Sequence record: MK524178.1
DNA length: 64,000 bases
Strand: one strand, 5' to 3'
From: Escherichia phage PHB12
In this document: piece by piece, positions 4,237 through 62,001 of the stretch
How positions within the stretch are numbered: the stretch's first letter is position 1
Layout: every line of letters begins with the position of its first letter
Translations under genes and position numbers: made by a program
Notes under the pieces: model-generated
What the model was told of the DNA's origin: nothing
Database searches by the model: none
Seen by the model: the letters and a program-made list of their open reading frames with translations, nothing else

Positions 4237-4761
4237 TCATTTTAGCAAAATAAAATCAACTTGTTCTGCCAATGAACGTCTAAACATTAATTGACAACTT
4301 CCGAGGATGAAATCAGGTGCTTCATAGACCGCGATGTAGTATCCTTTAGCTTTCAAGAGTTCAACATCCACCTGGTCATCAAACCATGCATAAACCGCGT
4401 CAACACTTTCAAATCCAAAATAGAACCCTTGGGCCCAATCTTCACTCAATTCAAATGTGTGCTCAATTCTATAGTATCTTAAGATATTTTGTTCAAGGAG
4501 TTTGTCTTCATTTACTGTAGGACGATTAGGGACATTATAGTTGTCACCGTGATGGTAGAAGTTACCTGAGATTATTCCATGTTTATCAAGGAACTCCCAT
4601 GTTTCTTCAGAGTTGTCGGTGCCCGACCAACCGTATGGTGAACGAGGTTCTTTATTCCAAGAGGTTTCCCAAATTCTGACGGCTTTACCGTCTTCGATAG
4701 CAATTCCTGGTAATGATTCACGTTGAGTACAAAAACTACGTTCTACACGATAAACTAACAT
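4237..4761 (-). CDS. hypothetical protein (start moved to internal ATG after GAGGAG)
   Basis: Track ORF 4237..4818 begins upstream of the promoter; MLVYRVERSF at 4761 has RBS GAGGAG. Confidence 0.45.
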   Translation of the reverse strand: MLVYRVERSFCTQRESLPGIAIEDGKAVRIWETSWNKEPRSPYGWSGTDNSEETWEFLDKHGIISGNFYHHGDNYNVPNRPTVNEDKLLEQNILRYYRIEHTFELSEDWAQGFYFGFESVDAVYAWFDDQVDVELLKAKGYYIAVYEAPDFILGSCQLMFRRSLAEQVDFILLK

Positions 4762-4787
4762 ATTATTCTCCTCTGGTTGATATGGGT

Positions 4788-4816
4788 ATAATATCAAAAC
4801 CAGAGGAGAAGTAAAC
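4788..4816 (-). promoter_or_regulatory. early promoter (-35 GTTTAC, 17-bp spacer, -10 TATTAT) nested in 11-bp inverted repeat
   Basis: Minus strand GTTTAC-ttctcctctggttttga-TATTAT; arms 4768-4778 and 4798-4808, downstream arm carries the RBS GAGGAG. Confidence 0.55.
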
Positions 4817-6261: not shown

Positions 6262-6292
6262 AATGTTTTTCCTGTTTGGTTAAGATAGAAAG

Positions 6293-6322
6293 ATTATACT
6301 CCAACCATCCTTGGTTGTAAAC
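6293..6322 (-). promoter_or_regulatory. early promoter (GTTTAC / TATAAT)
   Basis: GTTTACAACCAAGGATGGTTGGAGTATAAT; near-identical copies at 46653-46682 and 47643-47671. Confidence 0.55.
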
Positions 6323-16643: not shown

Positions 16644-16957
16644 ATTTCCTCGCAAAATGCCCATTCAGCGTGATAAACTGTGGCGCCTTTAGTATTATTC
16701 ATTTGAACTACGTCTACCGGAGAAATTACTCGATAGAGACGTGGTTCACCTCCATAAGAGCGTGCTGCTCGTCCTGCATAAATCTTTGCTAAACCGATAT
16801 CTTCAGTAAAGAATACACGATCCAAGTTTTTCTTACGTCCAGTTTCAGACAGAACTCCTGTTTCCTCAGGAGGACAAAGCATGTTTTCGATGTTAGCTGA
16901 ACTACTTGAACCGTGATAAAAAATCTTAAATTCTGCTTTACAATCGATGGTTTTCAT
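16640..16957 (-). CDS. hypothetical protein
   Basis: 105 aa; stop overlaps dmd start (ATGA); promoter within RBS-sequestering inverted repeat upstream. Confidence 0.45.
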   Translation of the reverse strand: MKTIDCKAEFKIFYHGSSSSANIENMLCPPEETGVLSETGRKKNLDRVFFTEDIGLAKIYAGRAARSYGGEPRLYRVISPVDVVQMNNTKGATVYHAEWAFCEEI

Positions 16958-16983
16958 TTTGTTCTCCAGTAGTTGATAGGTCT

Positions 16984-17012
16984 ATAATAACACAACTACT
17001 GGAGAAGTAAAC
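16984..17012 (-). promoter_or_regulatory. early promoter (GTTTAC / TATTAT) nested in 12-bp inverted repeat
   Basis: Arms ctccagtagttg (16964-16975) and caactactggag (16993-17004); downstream arm contains the RBS. Confidence 0.55.
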
Positions 17013-17387
17013 TTAAAAATGTAATTTAGATATATCTGCGTTGATTTCGTTTTGGTTTGCGTCATATGCAATTAAACGAACCGCTTTAGATGGGTCATTC
17101 AATGCATAGAAATGATGGAACATTGCTCGAACGATATCACCATTTACGAGTTTTACCTGGATAGGAGAACCTTTTTCGAGTTGGAAATGTTCATAAGCTT
17201 TGATGGTTCGCAGATAATCAAGTTTTTGATTTCCGGCTCCAACAATTTGTACGATACGTTTGCCCATGTTTTCCATACGAGATACAATAGTTTTAGGAGC
17301 AAGAATAACATAGGTTGCCAGCGGAGAATCTACTTCAACAGTTGTGTTTTCGGTGATTGCAGTAAAAATTGCTTGAGACATATTCAT
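17013..17387 (-). CDS. hypothetical protein
   Basis: 124-aa ORF with promoter at about 17417-17446. Confidence 0.45.
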   Translation of the reverse strand: MNMSQAIFTAITENTTVEVDSPLATYVILAPKTIVSRMENMGKRIVQIVGAGNQKLDYLRTIKAYEHFQLEKGSPIQVKLVNGDIVRAMFHHFYALNDPSKAVRLIAYDANQNEINADISKLHF

Positions 17388-17416
17388 AGTGTTTTCCTCT
17401 TGGTTGGTGTAAGTAC

Positions 17417-17446
17417 ATCATATCATGCCTAGAGGAAGATGTAAAC
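17417..17446 (-). promoter_or_regulatory. early promoter-like (GTTTAC / TATGAT)
   Basis: gGTTTACatcttcctctaggcatgaTATGAT upstream of 17013..17387. Confidence 0.45.
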
Positions 17447-17452
17447 CCCGAA

Positions 17453-17475
17453 AGGAGACCGAAGTCTCCTTTTTA
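17453..17475. terminator. hairpin after gene 41 (orientation ambiguous)
   Basis: AGGAGAC-cgaa-GTCTCCT followed by TTTTT on plus; on minus followed by UUUCGGGG. Confidence 0.4.
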
Positions 17476-18918
17476 TTAAAATTTTAACTCATTGGCTAAG
17501 CTATCTAGGTCAGCACGTGTTGTTTTGGCTTTACCTACGCGTTCCGTACGATTCACCTCTGCCTGACGCATCTGAGCACCTGCGTTTTCATTTACTGTGT
17601 TAGGTGTGTTCATGCCTTCTTGCTCAATCTCAATCCATTTCTGGTTGCCTTTACGTACACCCATCAGGAATTTATTCCACTTATTCTTATCACCATATCG
17701 TGATTTGATTTGTTTGATAAGTTGTTGTTCAGCTTGTGCAAGTTCTTCGGTTTCAATTACGGCCAACATGAAATCTGCCGTTGCTGGTAAACCTGCTGAT
17801 TCTGCAATATCGCGCATGTTCATATCCGAAGCATCCCATGCTGCACGTCCTACTTGAGCTGCAGTCCATAGAACTGTTTCAGATTCTACTGCTAATGCAC
17901 GAAGTTCTTCTGCGATAGCTTTAACTAATGTGTAGCTATTTTCAGTGTAAACTCTGATACGACAAGACCCACAAATACCTAAGTAATCAACCATGATTAC
18001 AGATGGCACAAAGTTCTTCTTAAGTTTTAACTCATTAAGCAATGCACGGAATGTATTAGCATTAGCTCCGCCAGTAGGATACTGTTTAACTACTAAACGT
18101 CCTAATGTGGATTTTGAACGCCATTTTTCCATCTTGGCTTTATATTCAGCATAAGATACGTTACCATCATCAATATCATCAAGTGATACGTCAAGCATGT
18201 TTGCATCTATACGCTTAGCGCAAACTTCTTCAGCCATTTCCATGGAAATATAAAGAACATTATGACCTGTTTGAAGATAATCTGCAGCAAGTGAACAAAG
18301 GCCTAAAGATTTACCAACGTTAACACCGGCCATTAAAACATTCAGTGTACCGGTTTCAGCACCACCTTTAGTGATTTTATTCAGAATGTTTAATTTGAAC
18401 GGGACCTTACGTGCTTTGTTCAGATAAGAAAGCCAGCGTGCTTCATAGTCTTCCATCCAGTCATGCCCAACATAACTATCAAACGAAATTGAAAGTGCTT
18501 GACGCATAATATCAGGAATAGCTCCTACGTCAGGCATTTTCTTGTTACGTTGTTCTGGAGGTAGTTCAGCATTAGATTGAATCTCAATGATTTTAGATGT
18601 AGCATTATACATCGCTTTTTGCTGGACATATTTCTCAGTTTCTTTAACCAACCATTCGTGGTCTTCAGGAGTATCAGCCAATTTTTCAATTAGGTCTGAA
18701 GTTCCTTTATATTCGGCTTCAGTTAAAGAACTGTTATCTAAAGCCACCTTTAACGCATTGATAGATGGCATTGCATTATATTCGTTAACGTGGCTCTTTA
18801 TAATTTTAAAGACGTTTTTTGCCGGTCCACGCTCAAAATACTCAGAATCCATATAAGGCCAGACCTTAGAAAAATAAGCCTGGTCATATACTAGATGAGA
18901 CAAAATAATTTCTACCAC
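17476..18918 (-). CDS. 41: replicative DNA helicase (DnaB-like)
   Basis: 480 aa; Walker A GVNVGKS and RecA-like core; T4 gp41-like. Confidence 0.9.
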   Translation of the reverse strand: MVEIILSHLVYDQAYFSKVWPYMDSEYFERGPAKNVFKIIKSHVNEYNAMPSINALKVALDNSSLTEAEYKGTSDLIEKLADTPEDHEWLVKETEKYVQQKAMYNATSKIIEIQSNAELPPEQRNKKMPDVGAIPDIMRQALSISFDSYVGHDWMEDYEARWLSYLNKARKVPFKLNILNKITKGGAETGTLNVLMAGVNVGKSLGLCSLAADYLQTGHNVLYISMEMAEEVCAKRIDANMLDVSLDDIDDGNVSYAEYKAKMEKWRSKSTLGRLVVKQYPTGGANANTFRALLNELKLKKNFVPSVIMVDYLGICGSCRIRVYTENSYTLVKAIAEELRALAVESETVLWTAAQVGRAAWDASDMNMRDIAESAGLPATADFMLAVIETEELAQAEQQLIKQIKSRYGDKNKWNKFLMGVRKGNQKWIEIEQEGMNTPNTVNENAGAQMRQAEVNRTERVGKAKTTRADLDSLANELKF

Positions 18919-39990: not shown

Positions 39991-40169
39991 GGCTTAATTT
40001 CCTTCGCAATTGAACAGAAGATACTACGGTCACAAAGCATTTCACCAATTTCTGGATATTTGATTGAACGGTACCAAACATCCAGGCTTGAAACTCCGGT
40101 TATCTGTACTGCGTTACCGTTGACAGAATAGTACTGGTCAACCTTAATTTCTTTATCTTCAATTGTCAT
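39987..40169 (-). CDS. hypothetical protein
   Basis: Start moved to MTIEDKEIKV after AGGAAA. Confidence 0.3.
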   Translation of the reverse strand: MTIEDKEIKVDQYYSVNGNAVQITGVSSLDVWYRSIKYPEIGEMLCDRSIFCSIAKEIKP

Positions 40170-40335
40170 TTTGTTTTCCTCTATAGCAGTTGGTTTAATC
40201 TTAACACATCTATCGAGGATGTAAACTGTTTTATGAAAAATATTTTTGATTTGAGAGGGGCACAAGGAGATAGTGAAGTGAAGATTCCAATGGATTATAT
40301 TAGAAATGAGATAAAGAAGACCAGGCGGCACCTGG

Positions 40336-46624: not shown

Positions 46625-46652
46625 AATATTTTCCTCTCGTTAAGATAGAAAG

Positions 46653-46682
46653 ATTATACTCCAACCATCCTTGGTTGTAAAC
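46653..46682 (-). promoter_or_regulatory. early promoter (copy of the 6293 element)
   Basis: Same ~45-bp sequence gttaagatagaaagattatactccaaccatccttggttgtaaactg. Confidence 0.55.
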
Positions 46683-48729: not shown

Positions 48730-49257
48730 TTATGCGTGAACCGTCTTTAAACGTTCTTCAAATTTCCGAAGAGTACTAATACGTTCTGCTTTCTGTTTTG
48801 TATAGTTTGCAATACGTTCTGAAGTGAGAGCGTATCGTTCGTTTACTGTTTCTTTCATGAAGTCAGGGATTTCACGAGAAGCTTTAATTTCATCAAACTT
48901 ATCGAGTACTGCCTGGTCTTCAGCGATTAAATTTTCGTACATCTCGATATCTTTCTTGATAAACTCGATATCTTCCTGGGTTACTTTGGATAAACGAGAT
49001 GCTTTATCCTTTTTGTACTGCTCGTTAGTTTCACGAGACCAGAATAATGTACGTTTTTTGTTAGTGTTTTTGTAGACTTCCACAATTCCAACTGAATCGA
49101 TGATAGCAATCCAATTCCAGTGAGATTTGAAAATCTGACCTCCGTCCACGGTAATCTCGTTACCATAAGCAACGTCATTAAAGAACTTGCTTTGTGCTTC
49201 AGATTTAAATTTACCGTCGTTATAATTTACCAGGTTGAAAATATCTTTAGCGTTCAT
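48730..49257 (-). CDS. hypothetical protein
   Basis: 175 aa; RBS GGAGG; promoter upstream. Confidence 0.45.
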   Translation of the reverse strand: MNAKDIFNLVNYNDGKFKSEAQSKFFNDVAYGNEITVDGGQIFKSHWNWIAIIDSVGIVEVYKNTNKKRTLFWSRETNEQYKKDKASRLSKVTQEDIEFIKKDIEMYENLIAEDQAVLDKFDEIKASREIPDFMKETVNERYALTSERIANYTKQKAERISTLRKFEERLKTVHA

Positions 49258-49284
49258 GTTTTACCTCCAGTAGTTGATAGGTCT

Positions 49285-49313
49285 ATAATAACATAACCAT
49301 AGACCTTGTAAAC
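49285..49313 (-). promoter_or_regulatory. early promoter (GTTTAC / TATTAT) with ATAGACC palindrome around -10
   Basis: GTTTACaaggtctatggttatgtTATTATagacctatc; inverted repeat AGGTCTAT / ATAGACCT at 49279-49306. Confidence 0.55.
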
Positions 49314-53040: not shown

Positions 53041-53385
53041 ATTATTCACCAATTAAAGTTTCAACAAAATTCACTAAATCATTCTGACAAGCATCAACCT
53101 GATTTTCATAAAAATCTCCGTTATCATTTACCGCGTGATAAGCTACATCATTCAAATCTGAATCGGCTTCACGTAAGTCACGGATAAGGTCCATCAATTT
53201 ATTAGCTTGTTCACGGGTCATTTTACCATACTCGTTTCAATAAGATTCACTATGCCGTTTACCATGTTATAAGTAAACATCGGATAATTGTATTGTACTA
53301 CAACATAAGCGATAAGCAAAAGTTTCATTTTGTTCTCCATTTGTTTTGGTAGGATTACTATATCATAGTCCTACCAAGACGTAAA

Positions 53386-53619
53386 CTACCGATTGTGTTT
53401 TAAATGTTGATAAAGCTCTTCAACTTGTTTAGGGTCCAAAACAATTAAGTCATTTTCTTGGCGAAGATAAATCCATCCCTTATCCCCAGGACCATTTTTA
53501 CAAAACATCACCACCGTATCATCATCTTCAGCGCTTTCAGGTAAAAGTTCAAGTACACCGTCTTCAGATTTTCCAGTATAATCGTAAAGCATAATGACCT
53601 CACATAATCTCGTTAACAT
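53386..53619 (-). CDS. hypothetical protein
   Basis: 77-aa ORF. Confidence 0.35.
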   Translation of the reverse strand: MLTRLCEVIMLYDYTGKSEDGVLELLPESAEDDDTVVMFCKNGPGDKGWIYLRQENDLIVLDPKQVEELYQHLKHNR

Positions 53620-53779
53620 ACATTTGCAATTCGGTGTGGGCAGATGCCATCTTTTTCATTGCCTTATTGATATCGATATCACCGTCTTCACACCCGTGGG
53701 CATTTTCCCAATCGGATACAGCGTTAGCGTACTCTTCAATCAAAAACATTAACTTAGAAATTTTTTCTTTACGTGACAT
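53600..53779 (-). CDS. hypothetical protein
   Basis: Start at MSRKEKISKL after GAGGAG. Confidence 0.35.
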   Translation of the reverse strand: MSRKEKISKLMFLIEEYANAVSDWENAHGCEDGDIDINKAMKKMASAHTELQMYVNEIM

Positions 53780-53806
53780 AACGTTCTCCTCTAGTAAGTA
53801 AGGTCT

Positions 53807-53835
53807 ACTATAACACAACCTGAGGAGAAGTAAAC
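53807..53835 (-). promoter_or_regulatory. early promoter (GTTTAC / TATAGT) flanked by CTCCTC/GAGGAG repeat
   Basis: GTTTACttctcctcaggttgtgtTATAGT; 6-bp arms at about 53786-53791 and 53822-53827. Confidence 0.5.
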
Positions 53836-53845
53836 TGCTAAATGC

Positions 53846-53874
53846 AAAAAAAGCCCCAACCTTTCGGAAGGGGC
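53846..53874 (-). terminator. rho-independent terminator, repeat copy 1
   Basis: aaaaaaaGCCCCaaCCtttcGGaaGGGGC on plus; U-run on minus strand after hairpin. Confidence 0.65.
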
Positions 53875-53879
53875 TTTGA

Positions 53880-54437
53880 TTAGTTTTTGTAATATCGTAA
53901 AGGGTTGATATGGAATGAAAGCATTGCGCGTGGAATAGGACGACTCAAAAGACTCTTAAGTTTCCAACCACAATAAACACGCAGATAAAATGTAATACCA
54001 CCAACCTTAAGATAAGGTATAGCAGCGAATAATCCCCATGCAGACTCGTTCCAAACTAAAAGATATCCATGATGTGCCGGATCAGGAGATCCAGATTTAG
54101 TTTCGGCGTTGCCTTTATAGTGCCATTCTGATGAAGCTTCGCGACCTAAAACATGATACGAAAAATTATATGCTTTGTTGCGCCATAGCCAAGCTACGCG
54201 TTGAGCATATTTACCTATAACAGGAATTTTACGTATTTTAGACCAACGTTCAACATGGCCGCGGTCACCATCGATAGGATTATCGTAAGTCATCATCCAG
54301 TCAAAGCCATAAGGTAGTTTACCGGTTTTTTCACTATGGAATGGAACTACAAATGGTGCTAGAATAATTGCTAAAATCGCTGCGATCCAATCTATAGGAA
54401 CAAGAACAACCCAACTTATATATTTTAAAAATTTCAT
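53880..54437 (-). CDS. membrane protein with late promoter (rI.-1 position)
   Basis: 185 aa, N-terminal TM helix; TATAAATA upstream; bracketed by two identical terminator hairpins. Confidence 0.5.
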   Translation of the reverse strand: MKFLKYISWVVLVPIDWIAAILAIILAPFVVPFHSEKTGKLPYGFDWMMTYDNPIDGDRGHVERWSKIRKIPVIGKYAQRVAWLWRNKAYNFSYHVLGREASSEWHYKGNAETKSGSPDPAHHGYLLVWNESAWGLFAAIPYLKVGGITFYLRVYCGWKLKSLLSRPIPRAMLSFHINPLRYYKN

Positions 54438-57573: not shown

Positions 57574-58032
57574 CTAGATTTTAATCACTGCTTTAGAAGC
57601 TTTTCCTGGTAGTCGTTTATTGTTAATAATAGCCATTCTGCATTGAAGAGTCTTCATTTTGAATGCTGGATTTTCACGACAAACTGTAAGTCCTAACCAA
57701 AGATTTCCATCAGTTATTTCTAAACGGCCTGGGCGATATTCGACACCTTCGACAAAATCTTCATCAACATCTGGACGGGCCGGCATTGATAAAAATTCTG
57801 CAACTTCTTTAACATGATTTTTTACTTTACGAAATAATTCAAAAACGTAGTTCTCATCTATTTCTCTCTGGATGGCACGATCTAAGAGATGTTGAGAATA
57901 CTTGATATGAAAGCCTGGTAGTCCAAGAGACTTTGCAGCATCTTTTATACCGGCATTTATTTTGCGGAACTCCGTTTCAAAGATTCGACGGAGTTTATTA
58001 CGGCGGATAAAAACGTCTGAATTGATAGTCAT
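57574..58032 (-). CDS. regB: endoribonuclease RegB
   Basis: 152 aa; FIRRNKLRR.FE.EFR.IN, YSQHLLDRAIQREIDE, GRLEITDGNLWLG match T4 RegB. Confidence 0.85.
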   Translation of the reverse strand: MTINSDVFIRRNKLRRIFETEFRKINAGIKDAAKSLGLPGFHIKYSQHLLDRAIQREIDENYVFELFRKVKNHVKEVAEFLSMPARPDVDEDFVEGVEYRPGRLEITDGNLWLGLTVCRENPAFKMKTLQCRMAIINNKRLPGKASKAVIKI

Positions 58033-58060
58033 TTTGATTTCTCCTCTAGTTGACAGGTCT

Positions 58061-58089
58061 ATAGTAACACAACTAGAGGAGAAGTAAAC
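58061..58089 (-). promoter_or_regulatory. early promoter for regB (GTTTAC / TACTAT) nested in 12-bp inverted repeat
   Basis: Arms ctcctctagttg (58041-58052) and caactagaggag (58070-58081); downstream arm holds the RBS GAGGAG. Confidence 0.55.
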
Positions 58090-60002: not shown

Positions 60003-60243
60003 TTAGTTTCTCTTTTAGGTTGGGCTGTTCCGTGGCACATGAATTGTCCATTTCTGTATTTACCCATTACCGCACTTGGGCTCGACCTTATTACAGGTTG
60101 GCGGGAATCCCTCATAGAATCATGAGGTCCAGGTTGTTCCCATGTTATTTGAATGTAAATATTTTTGCCTTAATACTTATACCAGTGTGGCTTCATTAAA
60201 ATTTTTTCATCGAGTCATTTTACCTCTCCAAGTAATTATGAAT

Positions 60244-60273
60244 ATACTATCACAATTTTAGGAGAAAGTAAAC
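60244..60273 (-). promoter_or_regulatory. early promoter-like element heading a ~250-nt untranslated leader
   Basis: GTTTACtttctcctaaaattgtgATAGTAT; next sizeable ORF starts at 60002. Confidence 0.45.
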
Positions 60274-61530: not shown

Positions 61531-61944
61531 TTAGTAAATTGATTTACCATAGTATTTGTACCAAGTCGGACGTTGAGCAATTTTTTCATCTAAGCGTGCT
61601 TGACTTATCGCAATGGACGCTTCGGACGGGACGTAATTATTACGAAATTCTACAGGAATGTCGGAAATATCCTGGACTGTCGTGTCCTTGATTTTGAAAC
61701 CACGTTTCAAACATTCGGTGATTAGCTCGATTTGACGTAAACGTAAAAATTCGAGTTTGTCGTAAAAGAATGTTACGTGACCTGTGCCTAAGATAAATGT
61801 TGGAGAGATTTTAAAATCTTTTACACGTTTACCGTTTTGAACATGTTTACGGACTGCACCAAATACGCGTGGTAATTCACGATACTCAGCCATAAGATGT
61901 TGGTCGGTCAGTTCGGAAACGAGTGTTAAATTGATACGAGTCAT
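61531..61944 (-). CDS. denV: endonuclease V (pyrimidine dimer DNA glycosylase)
   Basis: Start at [34 protein letters not shown]; near-identical to T4 DenV over its length. Confidence 0.9.
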
Positions 61945-61971
61945 AATTTCCTCCAAGTAGTTGATGAATGT

Positions 61972-62001
61972 ATAGTATCAAAGTCCTTGGAGGAAGTAAA
62001 C
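61972..62001 (-). promoter_or_regulatory. early promoter for denV nested in 8-bp inverted repeat
   Basis: GTTTAC at 61996-62001; arms CCTCCAAG / CTTGGAGG at 61950-61957 and 61986-61993, downstream arm holds the RBS GGAGG. Confidence 0.5.

Follow-up and report, generated by a model that had tools for sequence, protein, structure and literature searches.

What is the function of an inverted repeat that encloses the start point of an early promoter and ends on the ribosome-binding site belonging to the gene that the promoter serves? This question is raised at several places in a 64,000-nucleotide stretch of Escherichia phage PHB12 (MK524178.1; 'the window' is used here for the whole of this stretch), which comes from a T4-type coliphage (Tequatrovirus) with its early genes on the minus strand; phage SF is ~98% identical to the window across the dda-dexA-srd region. 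An earlier note on this DNA had cited five such sites, and all five are found on the minus strand, upstream of the open reading frames (ORFs) starting at 4761, 16957, 53779, 58032 and 61944. Our computations favour, with a probability of about 60%, a model in which these early promoters carry in their spacer an arm complementary to the Shine-Dalgarno (SD) sequence, such that RNA started at the gene's own promoter would be translatable, whereas RNA reading through from upstream would fold and bury the SD.

The cited sites share one layout which, read 5′ to 3′ on the minus strand, consists of a GTTTAC −35 element, a 17–18 nt spacer, a TAnnnT −10 element, 8–16 nt, the 3′ arm of the repeat, 3–6 nt and the ATG (Table 1). 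The 5′ arm takes up the first 8–14 nt of the −35/−10 spacer and, as the earlier note had proposed, the 3′ arm contains the GGAG or GAGG of the SD. The repeats are longer than the 6–12 bp originally given, with perfect arms of 13, 14, 14, 10 and 8 bp. The promoter lies between the arms only in part: the −10 and the predicted start, ~7 nt past it, are inside the loop, while the −35 is immediately 5′ of the upstream arm and outside the stem. Since the 5′ arm is wholly upstream of the −10, a local transcript cannot include it, which agrees with the claim that such transcripts lack the upstream arm. Domain matches identify the genes at 58032 and 61944 as regB (PF10715) and denV (PF03013), respectively; the remaining genes behind stems of this type are small phage ORFs of unknown function.

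The predicted consequence for the SD was assessed as the mean unpaired probability of the SD window in partition-function folding, with the local RNA starting 7 nt after the −10. Across seven window sites (the five cited and two marginal ones), the SD is predicted to be unpaired with a probability of 0.01–0.37 in read-through RNA versus 0.60–0.89 in promoter-proximal RNA, the direction of change that had been expected. Hairpin energies were calculated from the −35 to the ATG and expressed as z against dinucleotide shuffles (Table 1). No Rfam 15 family matched anywhere in the window at gathering score, and neither promoters nor stem-loops are annotated in the stretches of the T4 GenBank and RefSeq records that we examined.

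We then asked how often such complementarity is expected by chance, using the 23 GTTTAC-type promoters in the window that are followed by an SD and an ATG and comparing each spacer with the 22 nt before the ATG. At least seven contiguous Watson-Crick pairs occur at 6 of the 23 promoters, against a mean of 0.31 and a maximum of 3 in 2000 shuffles of the spacers, and the summed duplex energy over the set has a z of −10. Four promoters reach at least nine pairs, compared with 0.47 when the partners are permuted (P<0.0005). Because the permuted partners, i.e. the SD regions of other promoters, give just 0.47, the complementarity is site-specific and goes beyond a pyrimidine-rich segment meeting a purine-rich one. 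The shuffles and the permuted-partner control together rule out chance and base composition as its cause.

The analysis was extended to 33 T4-type genomes, namely the window, T4 5–76 kb and 31 loci of 20 kb, which yielded 271 unique promoter-leader sequences. A stem with a score of at least 8 brackets the −10 in 44.6% of the 271 promoters, as opposed to 5.5% with shuffled spacers. The 3′ arm has a bimodal distribution of positions, and one of the two distinct peaks falls on the SD/ATG even though a 17–30 nt loop is costly; we therefore distinguish two classes. Class A (48 sequences, 18%) consists of stems that cover the SD or the start codon, with the 3′ arm ending −3 to +8 nt from the ATG; in class B (73 sequences, 27%) the stems surround the −10 and stop short of the SD, starting at most 2 nt from the −10 and ending 14–21 nt before the ATG. 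In class B the 3′ arm lies at about +1, the SD is left outside, and the stems covary between orthologs. A wider scan of the window placed 5 of 24 promoters in class A at a score of at least 8, with two more just below the threshold, and 2 in class B. The arrangement had been described as systematic for early genes; at 5 of 24 window promoters (seven with the marginal ones) and ~18% across the 33 genomes, that wording is too strong. T4 5–76 kb contains 2 class A promoters (regB and denV) and 6 of class B (ipI, ipII, ipIII, dmd, mobD.2 and modB), and has near misses at score 7 in motB and trna.4, both of class B type, and in nrdC.8, which is SD-pairing. Most class A genes have no match in T4 5–76 kb, i.e. 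they look like accessory ORFs.

If the stems act on incoming RNA, they are expected to be rare behind terminators, and this prediction held among the 271 promoters. Using folding-based detection within 60 nt upstream of the −35, an intrinsic-terminator-like hairpin was found at 9% of stem-bearing promoters versus 33% of stem-less ones (odds ratio 5, P = 2e-6); when the promoters are merged into 116 gene clusters, 4 of 36 and 31 of 80, respectively, have such a hairpin (P = 0.002). The upstream stop codon is separated from the −35 by a median of 5 nt in either stem class, as against 39.5 nt at stem-less promoters. Stems and terminators thus look like alternative solutions at gene junctions. At the four strong window sites the upstream stop lies 9–13 nt before the 5′ arm (13 nt at 4816, 9 nt at 17012) with no terminator in between. 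Two weaker sites have hairpins directly 5′ of the −35, both imperfect and missed by a strict detector: at 53835 an intrinsic-terminator-like GCCCC..GGGGC followed by TTTTTTT (~53836-53880, minus strand), and at 17446 a GGAGAC-TTCG-GTCTCC hairpin (~17447-17476, minus strand). Read-through at these two sites is probably already limited by the upstream hairpins. The site of ORF 53779, one of the five in the earlier note, has its repeat, but as a weak one (z −0.8) with an intrinsic terminator directly upstream. The promoter-embedded stems themselves do not resemble Rho-independent terminators: none is followed by a U-tract, a terminator scan flagged none, and the sequence after the 3′ arm is A-rich (AAUAAUAUG, CAAAAUG, AUCAAAAUG and AUUAUG).

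The arms change quickly, and they change together. Between paralogous copies in the window, a change in one arm is matched by a change in the other (TCTAGTTG/CAACTAGA, AGTAGTTG/CAACTACT and TCTGGTT/AACCAGA), and T4 orthologs pair with other sequence: T4 denV has TCTCCTGTAG/CTACAGGAGA, and the T4 regB stem, TTTTCCTCTTGACTG/CAGTTAAGAGGAGAA, has 15 bp, two G.U pairs among them. Both regB and denV, which the earlier note had named among the genes concerned, thus keep SD-pairing stems of different sequence. For nrdC.8, T4 has an SD-pairing stem just under the threshold (GTTCCTCTGT/ACGGAGGAAC, score 7), while the window ortholog has a class B stem instead; the T4 mobD.2 ortholog has GTTGACAAGATT / AATCTTGTCAAC at the position of the window class B stem. 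Among relatives in IMG/VR, the regB leaders comprise four SD-pairing versions, one lineage whose only stem is at the −10 and a distant lineage that has no stem, and the denV leaders comprise at least seven arm versions, in several of which the 5′ arm has moved onto the −10/+1 region (GATGTCTTCC/GGAGGACATC, TAGTAGCCT/AGGCTACTA) and still lies upstream of the expected start. Covariation was scored by pair counting over 29 class A stems, defined per sequence and set in a common register, and gave 0.48 versus 0.19 for shuffles (0 of 500 reach 0.48) and 0.10–0.13 for slid registers, although these 29 were pre-selected for having stems, so that it is the excess over shuffles and the series of orthologs that count as unbiased. 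Pairs 7–11 of the 29 stems include all four Watson-Crick types with almost no unpaired cells. RNAalifold applied to a MAFFT alignment of 11 regB leaders recovered just a 5-bp CUCC/GGAG core, because the arms slide between lineages.

Table 1. Promoter-stem modules in the window. All are on the minus strand; energies run from the −35 to the ATG (kcal/mol), and the last two columns give the predicted unpaired probability of the SD in read-through and local RNA.
Site	Gene	Type	Module	−35	−10	ATG	Stem	5′ arm	3′ arm	Energy	z	SD unpaired, read-through	SD unpaired, local
4816	ORF 4761 (174 aa, phrog_1106, function unknown)	class A	4759-4816	GTTTAC 4811-4816	TATTAT 4788-4793 (predicted start ~4781)	4759-4761	perfect 13 bp	TTCTCCTCTGGTT 4798-4810	AACCAGAGGAGAA 4766-4778 (SD)	−23.9	−6.2	0.02	0.79
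17012	ORF 16957 (105 aa, phrog_2110)	class A	16955-17012	17007-17012	TATTAT 16984-16989	16955-16957	perfect 14 bp	TTCTCCAGTAGTTG 16993-17006	CAACTACTGGAGAA 16962-16975	−21.7	−5.4	0.01	0.63
58089	regB	class A	58030-58089	58084-58089	TACTAT 58061-58066	58030-58032	perfect 14 bp	TTCTCCTCTAGTTG 58070-58083	CAACTAGAGGAGAA 58039-58052	−21.6	−4.3	0.22	0.69
62001	denV	class A	61942-62001	61996-62001	TACTAT 61972-61977	61942-61944	perfect 10 bp	TTCCTCCAAG 61986-61995	CTTGGAGGAA 61948-61957	−17.8	−4.7	0.10	0.60
53835	ORF 53779 (59 aa, DUF7438)	weak class A	53777-53835		TATAGT 53807-53812		perfect 8 bp, 30-nt loop	TTCTCCTC 53822-53829	GAGGAGAA 53784-53791	−14.0	−0.8	0.16	0.68
17446	ORF 17387	marginal class A, sub-threshold	17385-17446		TATGAT 17417-17422		7 bp	TTCCTCT 17431-17437	AGAGGAA 17394-17400	−10.0	−0.8	0.27	0.73
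40226	ORF 40169	marginal class A, sub-threshold	40167-40226		TAAGAT 40198-40203		10 bp, one mismatch	TCCTCGATAG 40210-40219	CTATAGAGGA 40177-40186	−10.4	−1.8	0.37	0.89
	mobD.2 ortholog	class B	53326-53386		53357-53362		brackets −10; SD outside	TTGGTAGGA 53369-53377	TCCTACCAA 53346-53354				
	nrdC.8 ortholog	class B	49255-49313				overlaps −10	AGGTCTAT 49299-49306	ATAGACCT 49279-49286				

Two further features of these leaders were observed. An initial transcribed motif, TATAGACCTATCAACTAC, follows the −10 at 16969-16986, 49270-49287 and 58046-58063 (minus strand), i.e. in three copies at no more than 3 mismatches where 0.06 are expected, and looser forms follow several other early promoters both here and in T4 (ACAACTATCAACTAC); at the class A sites the 5′ arm complements part of this motif plus the SD. 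Promoter-leader cassettes also recur within the window: those at 6279-6322 and 46639-46682 (minus strand) lie 40 kb apart, share an identical ~44 nt (GTTTACAACCAAGGATGGTTGGAGTATAATCTTTCTATCTTAAC), precede different ORFs and have a CCAA..TTGG mini-hairpin in the spacer.

The denV region has been rearranged. The gene order is denV-ipIII-ipII-vs.8 in the window versus ipIII-ipII-denV-vs.8 in T4, and at the old denV position (60141-60273, minus strand; compared with 61531-61980) an orphan promoter remains; behind it stands ATGACTCG TGA ('MTR-stop'), which corresponds to the initial 8 nt of a denV start. The body of the T4-type denV has been deleted there, and the breaks fall on promoter-leader junctions, which is where the PeSL shuffling model would put them. 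A BLAST match that placed an apparent ORF at 60218 inside T4 denV proved to be spurious, and re-mapping resolved it into the orphan promoter left by the relocation of denV.

In the mechanism that we propose for class A, the spacer of a sigma-70-type T4 early promoter would encode an anti-SD segment, with the consensus UUCUCC plus 4–8 variable nt, able to pair with the SD and its immediate 5′ neighbours 17–30 nt downstream. Polymerase at the local promoter would start within the loop and produce a transcript with the 3′ arm only, leaving the SD free, whereas RNA arriving from the upstream gene would have both arms and could form a 10–14 bp hairpin of −18 to −24 kcal/mol in which the SD is buried. 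Provided that the hairpin forms in vivo and lowers translation, as we infer, the cistron would be translated essentially only from its own-promoter transcript, and protein synthesis would be tied to the brief window in which the early promoter fires. Two corollaries may follow. The paired GGAG of read-through RNA would be shielded from RegB and the free GGAG exposed to it, and Rho-dependent polarity may affect the read-through stretch, which would go untranslated. Several independent computations make this mechanism plausible, and we consider it the best explanation for class A, that is, for a subset of early promoters. A broader version can be put forward only tentatively and is, on balance, somewhat doubtful: nearly half of T4-type early promoters would lie in fast-evolving, covarying stems that replace terminators at compact junctions and tell RNA isoforms apart genome-wide, a cistron being translatable and RegB-exposed only on its own transcript and silent and RegB-protected on read-through RNA, so that about one fifth of early genes, regB included, would be immediate-early by post-transcriptional enforcement and not by promoter timing alone.

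Several observations, in addition to the pre-selection of the covariation set, weigh against SD masking. Three of the seven window sites (53835, 17446 and 40226) are unexceptional on energy, being no more stable than shuffled sequence. Class B, at 27% of promoters, leaves the SD untouched, so that both classes may share some function other than masking; because this larger class lacks the SD, masking cannot be the sole reason for the repeats. A ribosome terminating 9–13 nt upstream could partly open the stem. Finally, evidence for selection at the level of RNA is uneven. When detection treats all mismatches alike, internal G.U mismatches outnumber A.C by 10:3 and 18:7 (P = 0.02), but with a lax penalty the ratio is 32:24 and not significant, which leaves the mismatch test suggestive. 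In class B, the stem of the sense RNA is more stable than that of the antisense RNA by 2.3 kcal/mol (40 of 47 non-tied, P = 4e-7), a difference that mainly reports G.U pairs, since Watson-Crick stacks are identical on both strands, and to which a G/T-rich extended −10 may contribute in part. The class A stems, nearly all of them perfect Watson-Crick, have no sense/antisense asymmetry (14 vs 16), and neither have stem-less controls; selection on RNA is thus not proven for class A. An RNA role for class A is favoured by four features: the 3′ arm falls on the SD, the loops are too long to extrude easily as cruciforms, the stems go with an absence of terminators, and there is a mild G.U bias.

One rival possibility is that the stems are generic hairpins of compact, terminator-less junctions, acting as an attenuator or pause signal, as a 3′ exonuclease barrier that stabilises the upstream cistron or as a processing signal, with coverage of the SD incidental. 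Such a function would unify the two classes, given that class B is equally enriched, equally covarying and equally anti-correlated with terminators while lacking the SD, and it would accommodate the sense-strand bias of class B; terminator-like activity has been reported for the RB49-type PeSL stem-loop (Arbiol et al., PMC2839356). However, the absence of U-tracts and of scan hits is unfavourable to this reading, a purely structural role should prefer the short loops of class B and does not account for the distinct 3′ arm peak on the SD/ATG, and a class A hairpin, if formed, buries the SD as a physical consequence whatever else it does. We consider it unlikely that a generic hairpin explains class A.

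Less probable again, and in our view a poor fit, is a role in DNA with no action in RNA, either in recombination and cassette shuffling, as in the PeSL model, or in cruciform or hairpin extrusion that exposes the −10. The repetition of promoter-leader cassettes in the genome, the accessory appearance of most class A genes, and the displacement of denV from its T4 position, which broke the sequence at promoter-leader junctions and left an orphan promoter, would all suit this reading, as would the association of such cassettes with indels in the PeSL papers and the ability of perfect Watson-Crick class A stems to form equally well on either strand. For recombination, however, the repeats needed are direct ones between cassettes, not inverted ones within them, and compensatory changes inside a cassette are not predicted; cruciform extrusion is disfavoured by loops of 17–30 nt; and a DNA element gives no reason for the 3′ arm to be the SD or for stems to avoid terminator-preceded promoters, nor for the biases toward G.U over A.C and toward sense-strand stability. 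The study of Srikant et al. 2022 was set aside, as it concerns generic microhomology recombination.

Translational coupling, in which upstream ribosomes would open the hairpin and the downstream gene on read-through RNA would be translated only if the upstream gene is, can be given very little weight: the closely spaced upstream stops (at the four strong sites 9–13 nt from the 5′ arm, and a median of 5 nt before the −35 across stem-bearing promoters) speak for it, but a ribosome with a stop codon in the A site unwinds ~8–10 nt beyond the first base of that codon, so that its reach covers at most 0–2 of the 10–14 pairs, which makes coupling geometrically weak, and the downstream start is ~55 nt away.

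The proposed masking of the SD has precedents, among which the closest one with an ordinary sigma-70 promoter is the transposon IS10, where, as predicted for the window, the region around the translation start pairs with sequence from before the element's own transcription start. In the fold-back inhibition of IS10/Tn10, the element's own sigma-70 transcript is reportedly translatable, whereas in transcripts from outside the upstream segment is said to pair with the translation start and silence it. The difference is one of deployment, since IS10 defends one gene (transposase) against fortuitous activation, while the window modules serve many co-oriented early genes (regB, denV and small phage ORFs) and show fast turnover of the arms. 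IS10 (Davis, Simons & Kleckner 1985) is cited in PMC13181058 as an example of sequestered translation signals.

Within T4 itself the principle is known, as the earlier note had pointed out for lysozyme and soc: promoter-in-hairpin translational control is experimentally established for e (lysozyme), soc, 49 and I-TevI (PMC3014915 section 29), and the same control has been proposed for the homing-endonuclease genes I-TevII/III, segB and Aeh1 mobE, where the embedded promoter is middle or late (PMC3014915, PMC2988022). The established cases belong to the same phage family and share with the window modules, where the arrangement is predicted, an SD and/or AUG held in a helix on upstream-started RNA and an own transcript that starts inside the hairpin without the 5′ strand. 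They differ in having gp55 late promoters (TATAAATA), or middle/late ones, which delay expression. The promoters embedded at the window sites are not of this late type; they are sigma-70 early promoters of the form GTTTAC-N17/18-TAnnnT with the 5′ arm in the spacer. The predicted timing is accordingly reversed, expression being confined to the earliest minutes in the window and delayed until late in the known T4 cases. Because their promoters are of the early type, we count the window modules as a variant and not as a member of T4 promoter-in-hairpin control. We found no description of early promoters embedded in SD-masking stems in the accessible literature, although an earlier mention in older T4 sources is possible.

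The modules also resemble PeSL cassettes, which combine a T4-type promoter with a stem-loop, including stems located between −35 and −10, and which have been read as terminators or attenuators and recombination sites (Arbiol 2010, PMC2839356; Comeau 2014). The PeSL stem-loop is located just upstream of the promoter in T4/PST and between −35 and −10, or over the −10, in RB49/phi1. The PeSL units and the window modules alike are intergenic cassettes of ~60–100 bp with an AT-rich upstream region, early promoter, stem-loop, SD and ATG beside variable ORFs. The window stems differ in lacking a U-tract and in having the SD (class A) or the +1 region (class B) as the 3′ arm. Compared with RB49/phi1, the 5′ arm is likewise in the spacer, while the 3′ arm of class A lies 17–30 nt off on the SD; class B matches the description 'overlapping the −10'. 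The words translation, ribosome and sequester are absent from the main text of Arbiol 2010 (PMC2839356). A PeSL-type terminator role was considered for the window stems and rejected on sequence criteria: with no U-tract after any stem and none flagged, they do not appear to be terminators. Four denV homologs on phage contigs of ~350 kb (L042, L046, L049 and L050) have a −35 TTGAC within the 5′ arm of a GC-rich hairpin that is followed by a T-run, e.g. GGGTTGACTTCGGTCAGCCCTTTTTGCTATAAT; these are overlapping terminator-promoters of the RB49 PeSL type and have no SD pairing.

The 3′ arms in the window hold GGAG, the target of RegB, but targeting by a trans-acting nuclease does not explain the complementary arm upstream. 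RegB is inhibited by secondary structure, and the GGAG of T4 denV is RegB-resistant in vivo, for sequence reasons (Durand et al. 2006). Both observations fit the corollary that the two RNA isoforms would meet different fates. The leader of ORF 16957, GGAGAACAAAA (16958-16968), exactly matches the published RegB/S1 consensus GGAGRAYARAA, and, judging by this match, its local transcript is likely a RegB substrate whose GGAG would be paired in read-through RNA.

The most useful new points, in our view, are how widespread the stems are (45% of early promoters), that they fall into two discrete classes, that their arms turn over quickly by compensatory change and that they are anti-correlated with upstream terminators. 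The shut-off of T4 early genes is still only partly explained. If read-through RNA is untranslatable at these genes, protein synthesis would stop once the early promoter is shut off, although transcription through the region goes on; the sharp burst in which RegB and similar proteins are made would then have a simple explanation encoded in cis. PeSL-type cassettes would likewise gain a regulatory meaning, in that a mobile gene would bring with it both a promoter and insulation from the transcripts of its neighbours, making shuffling safer. The same layout would provide a compact design for isoform-specific translation in synthetic operons.

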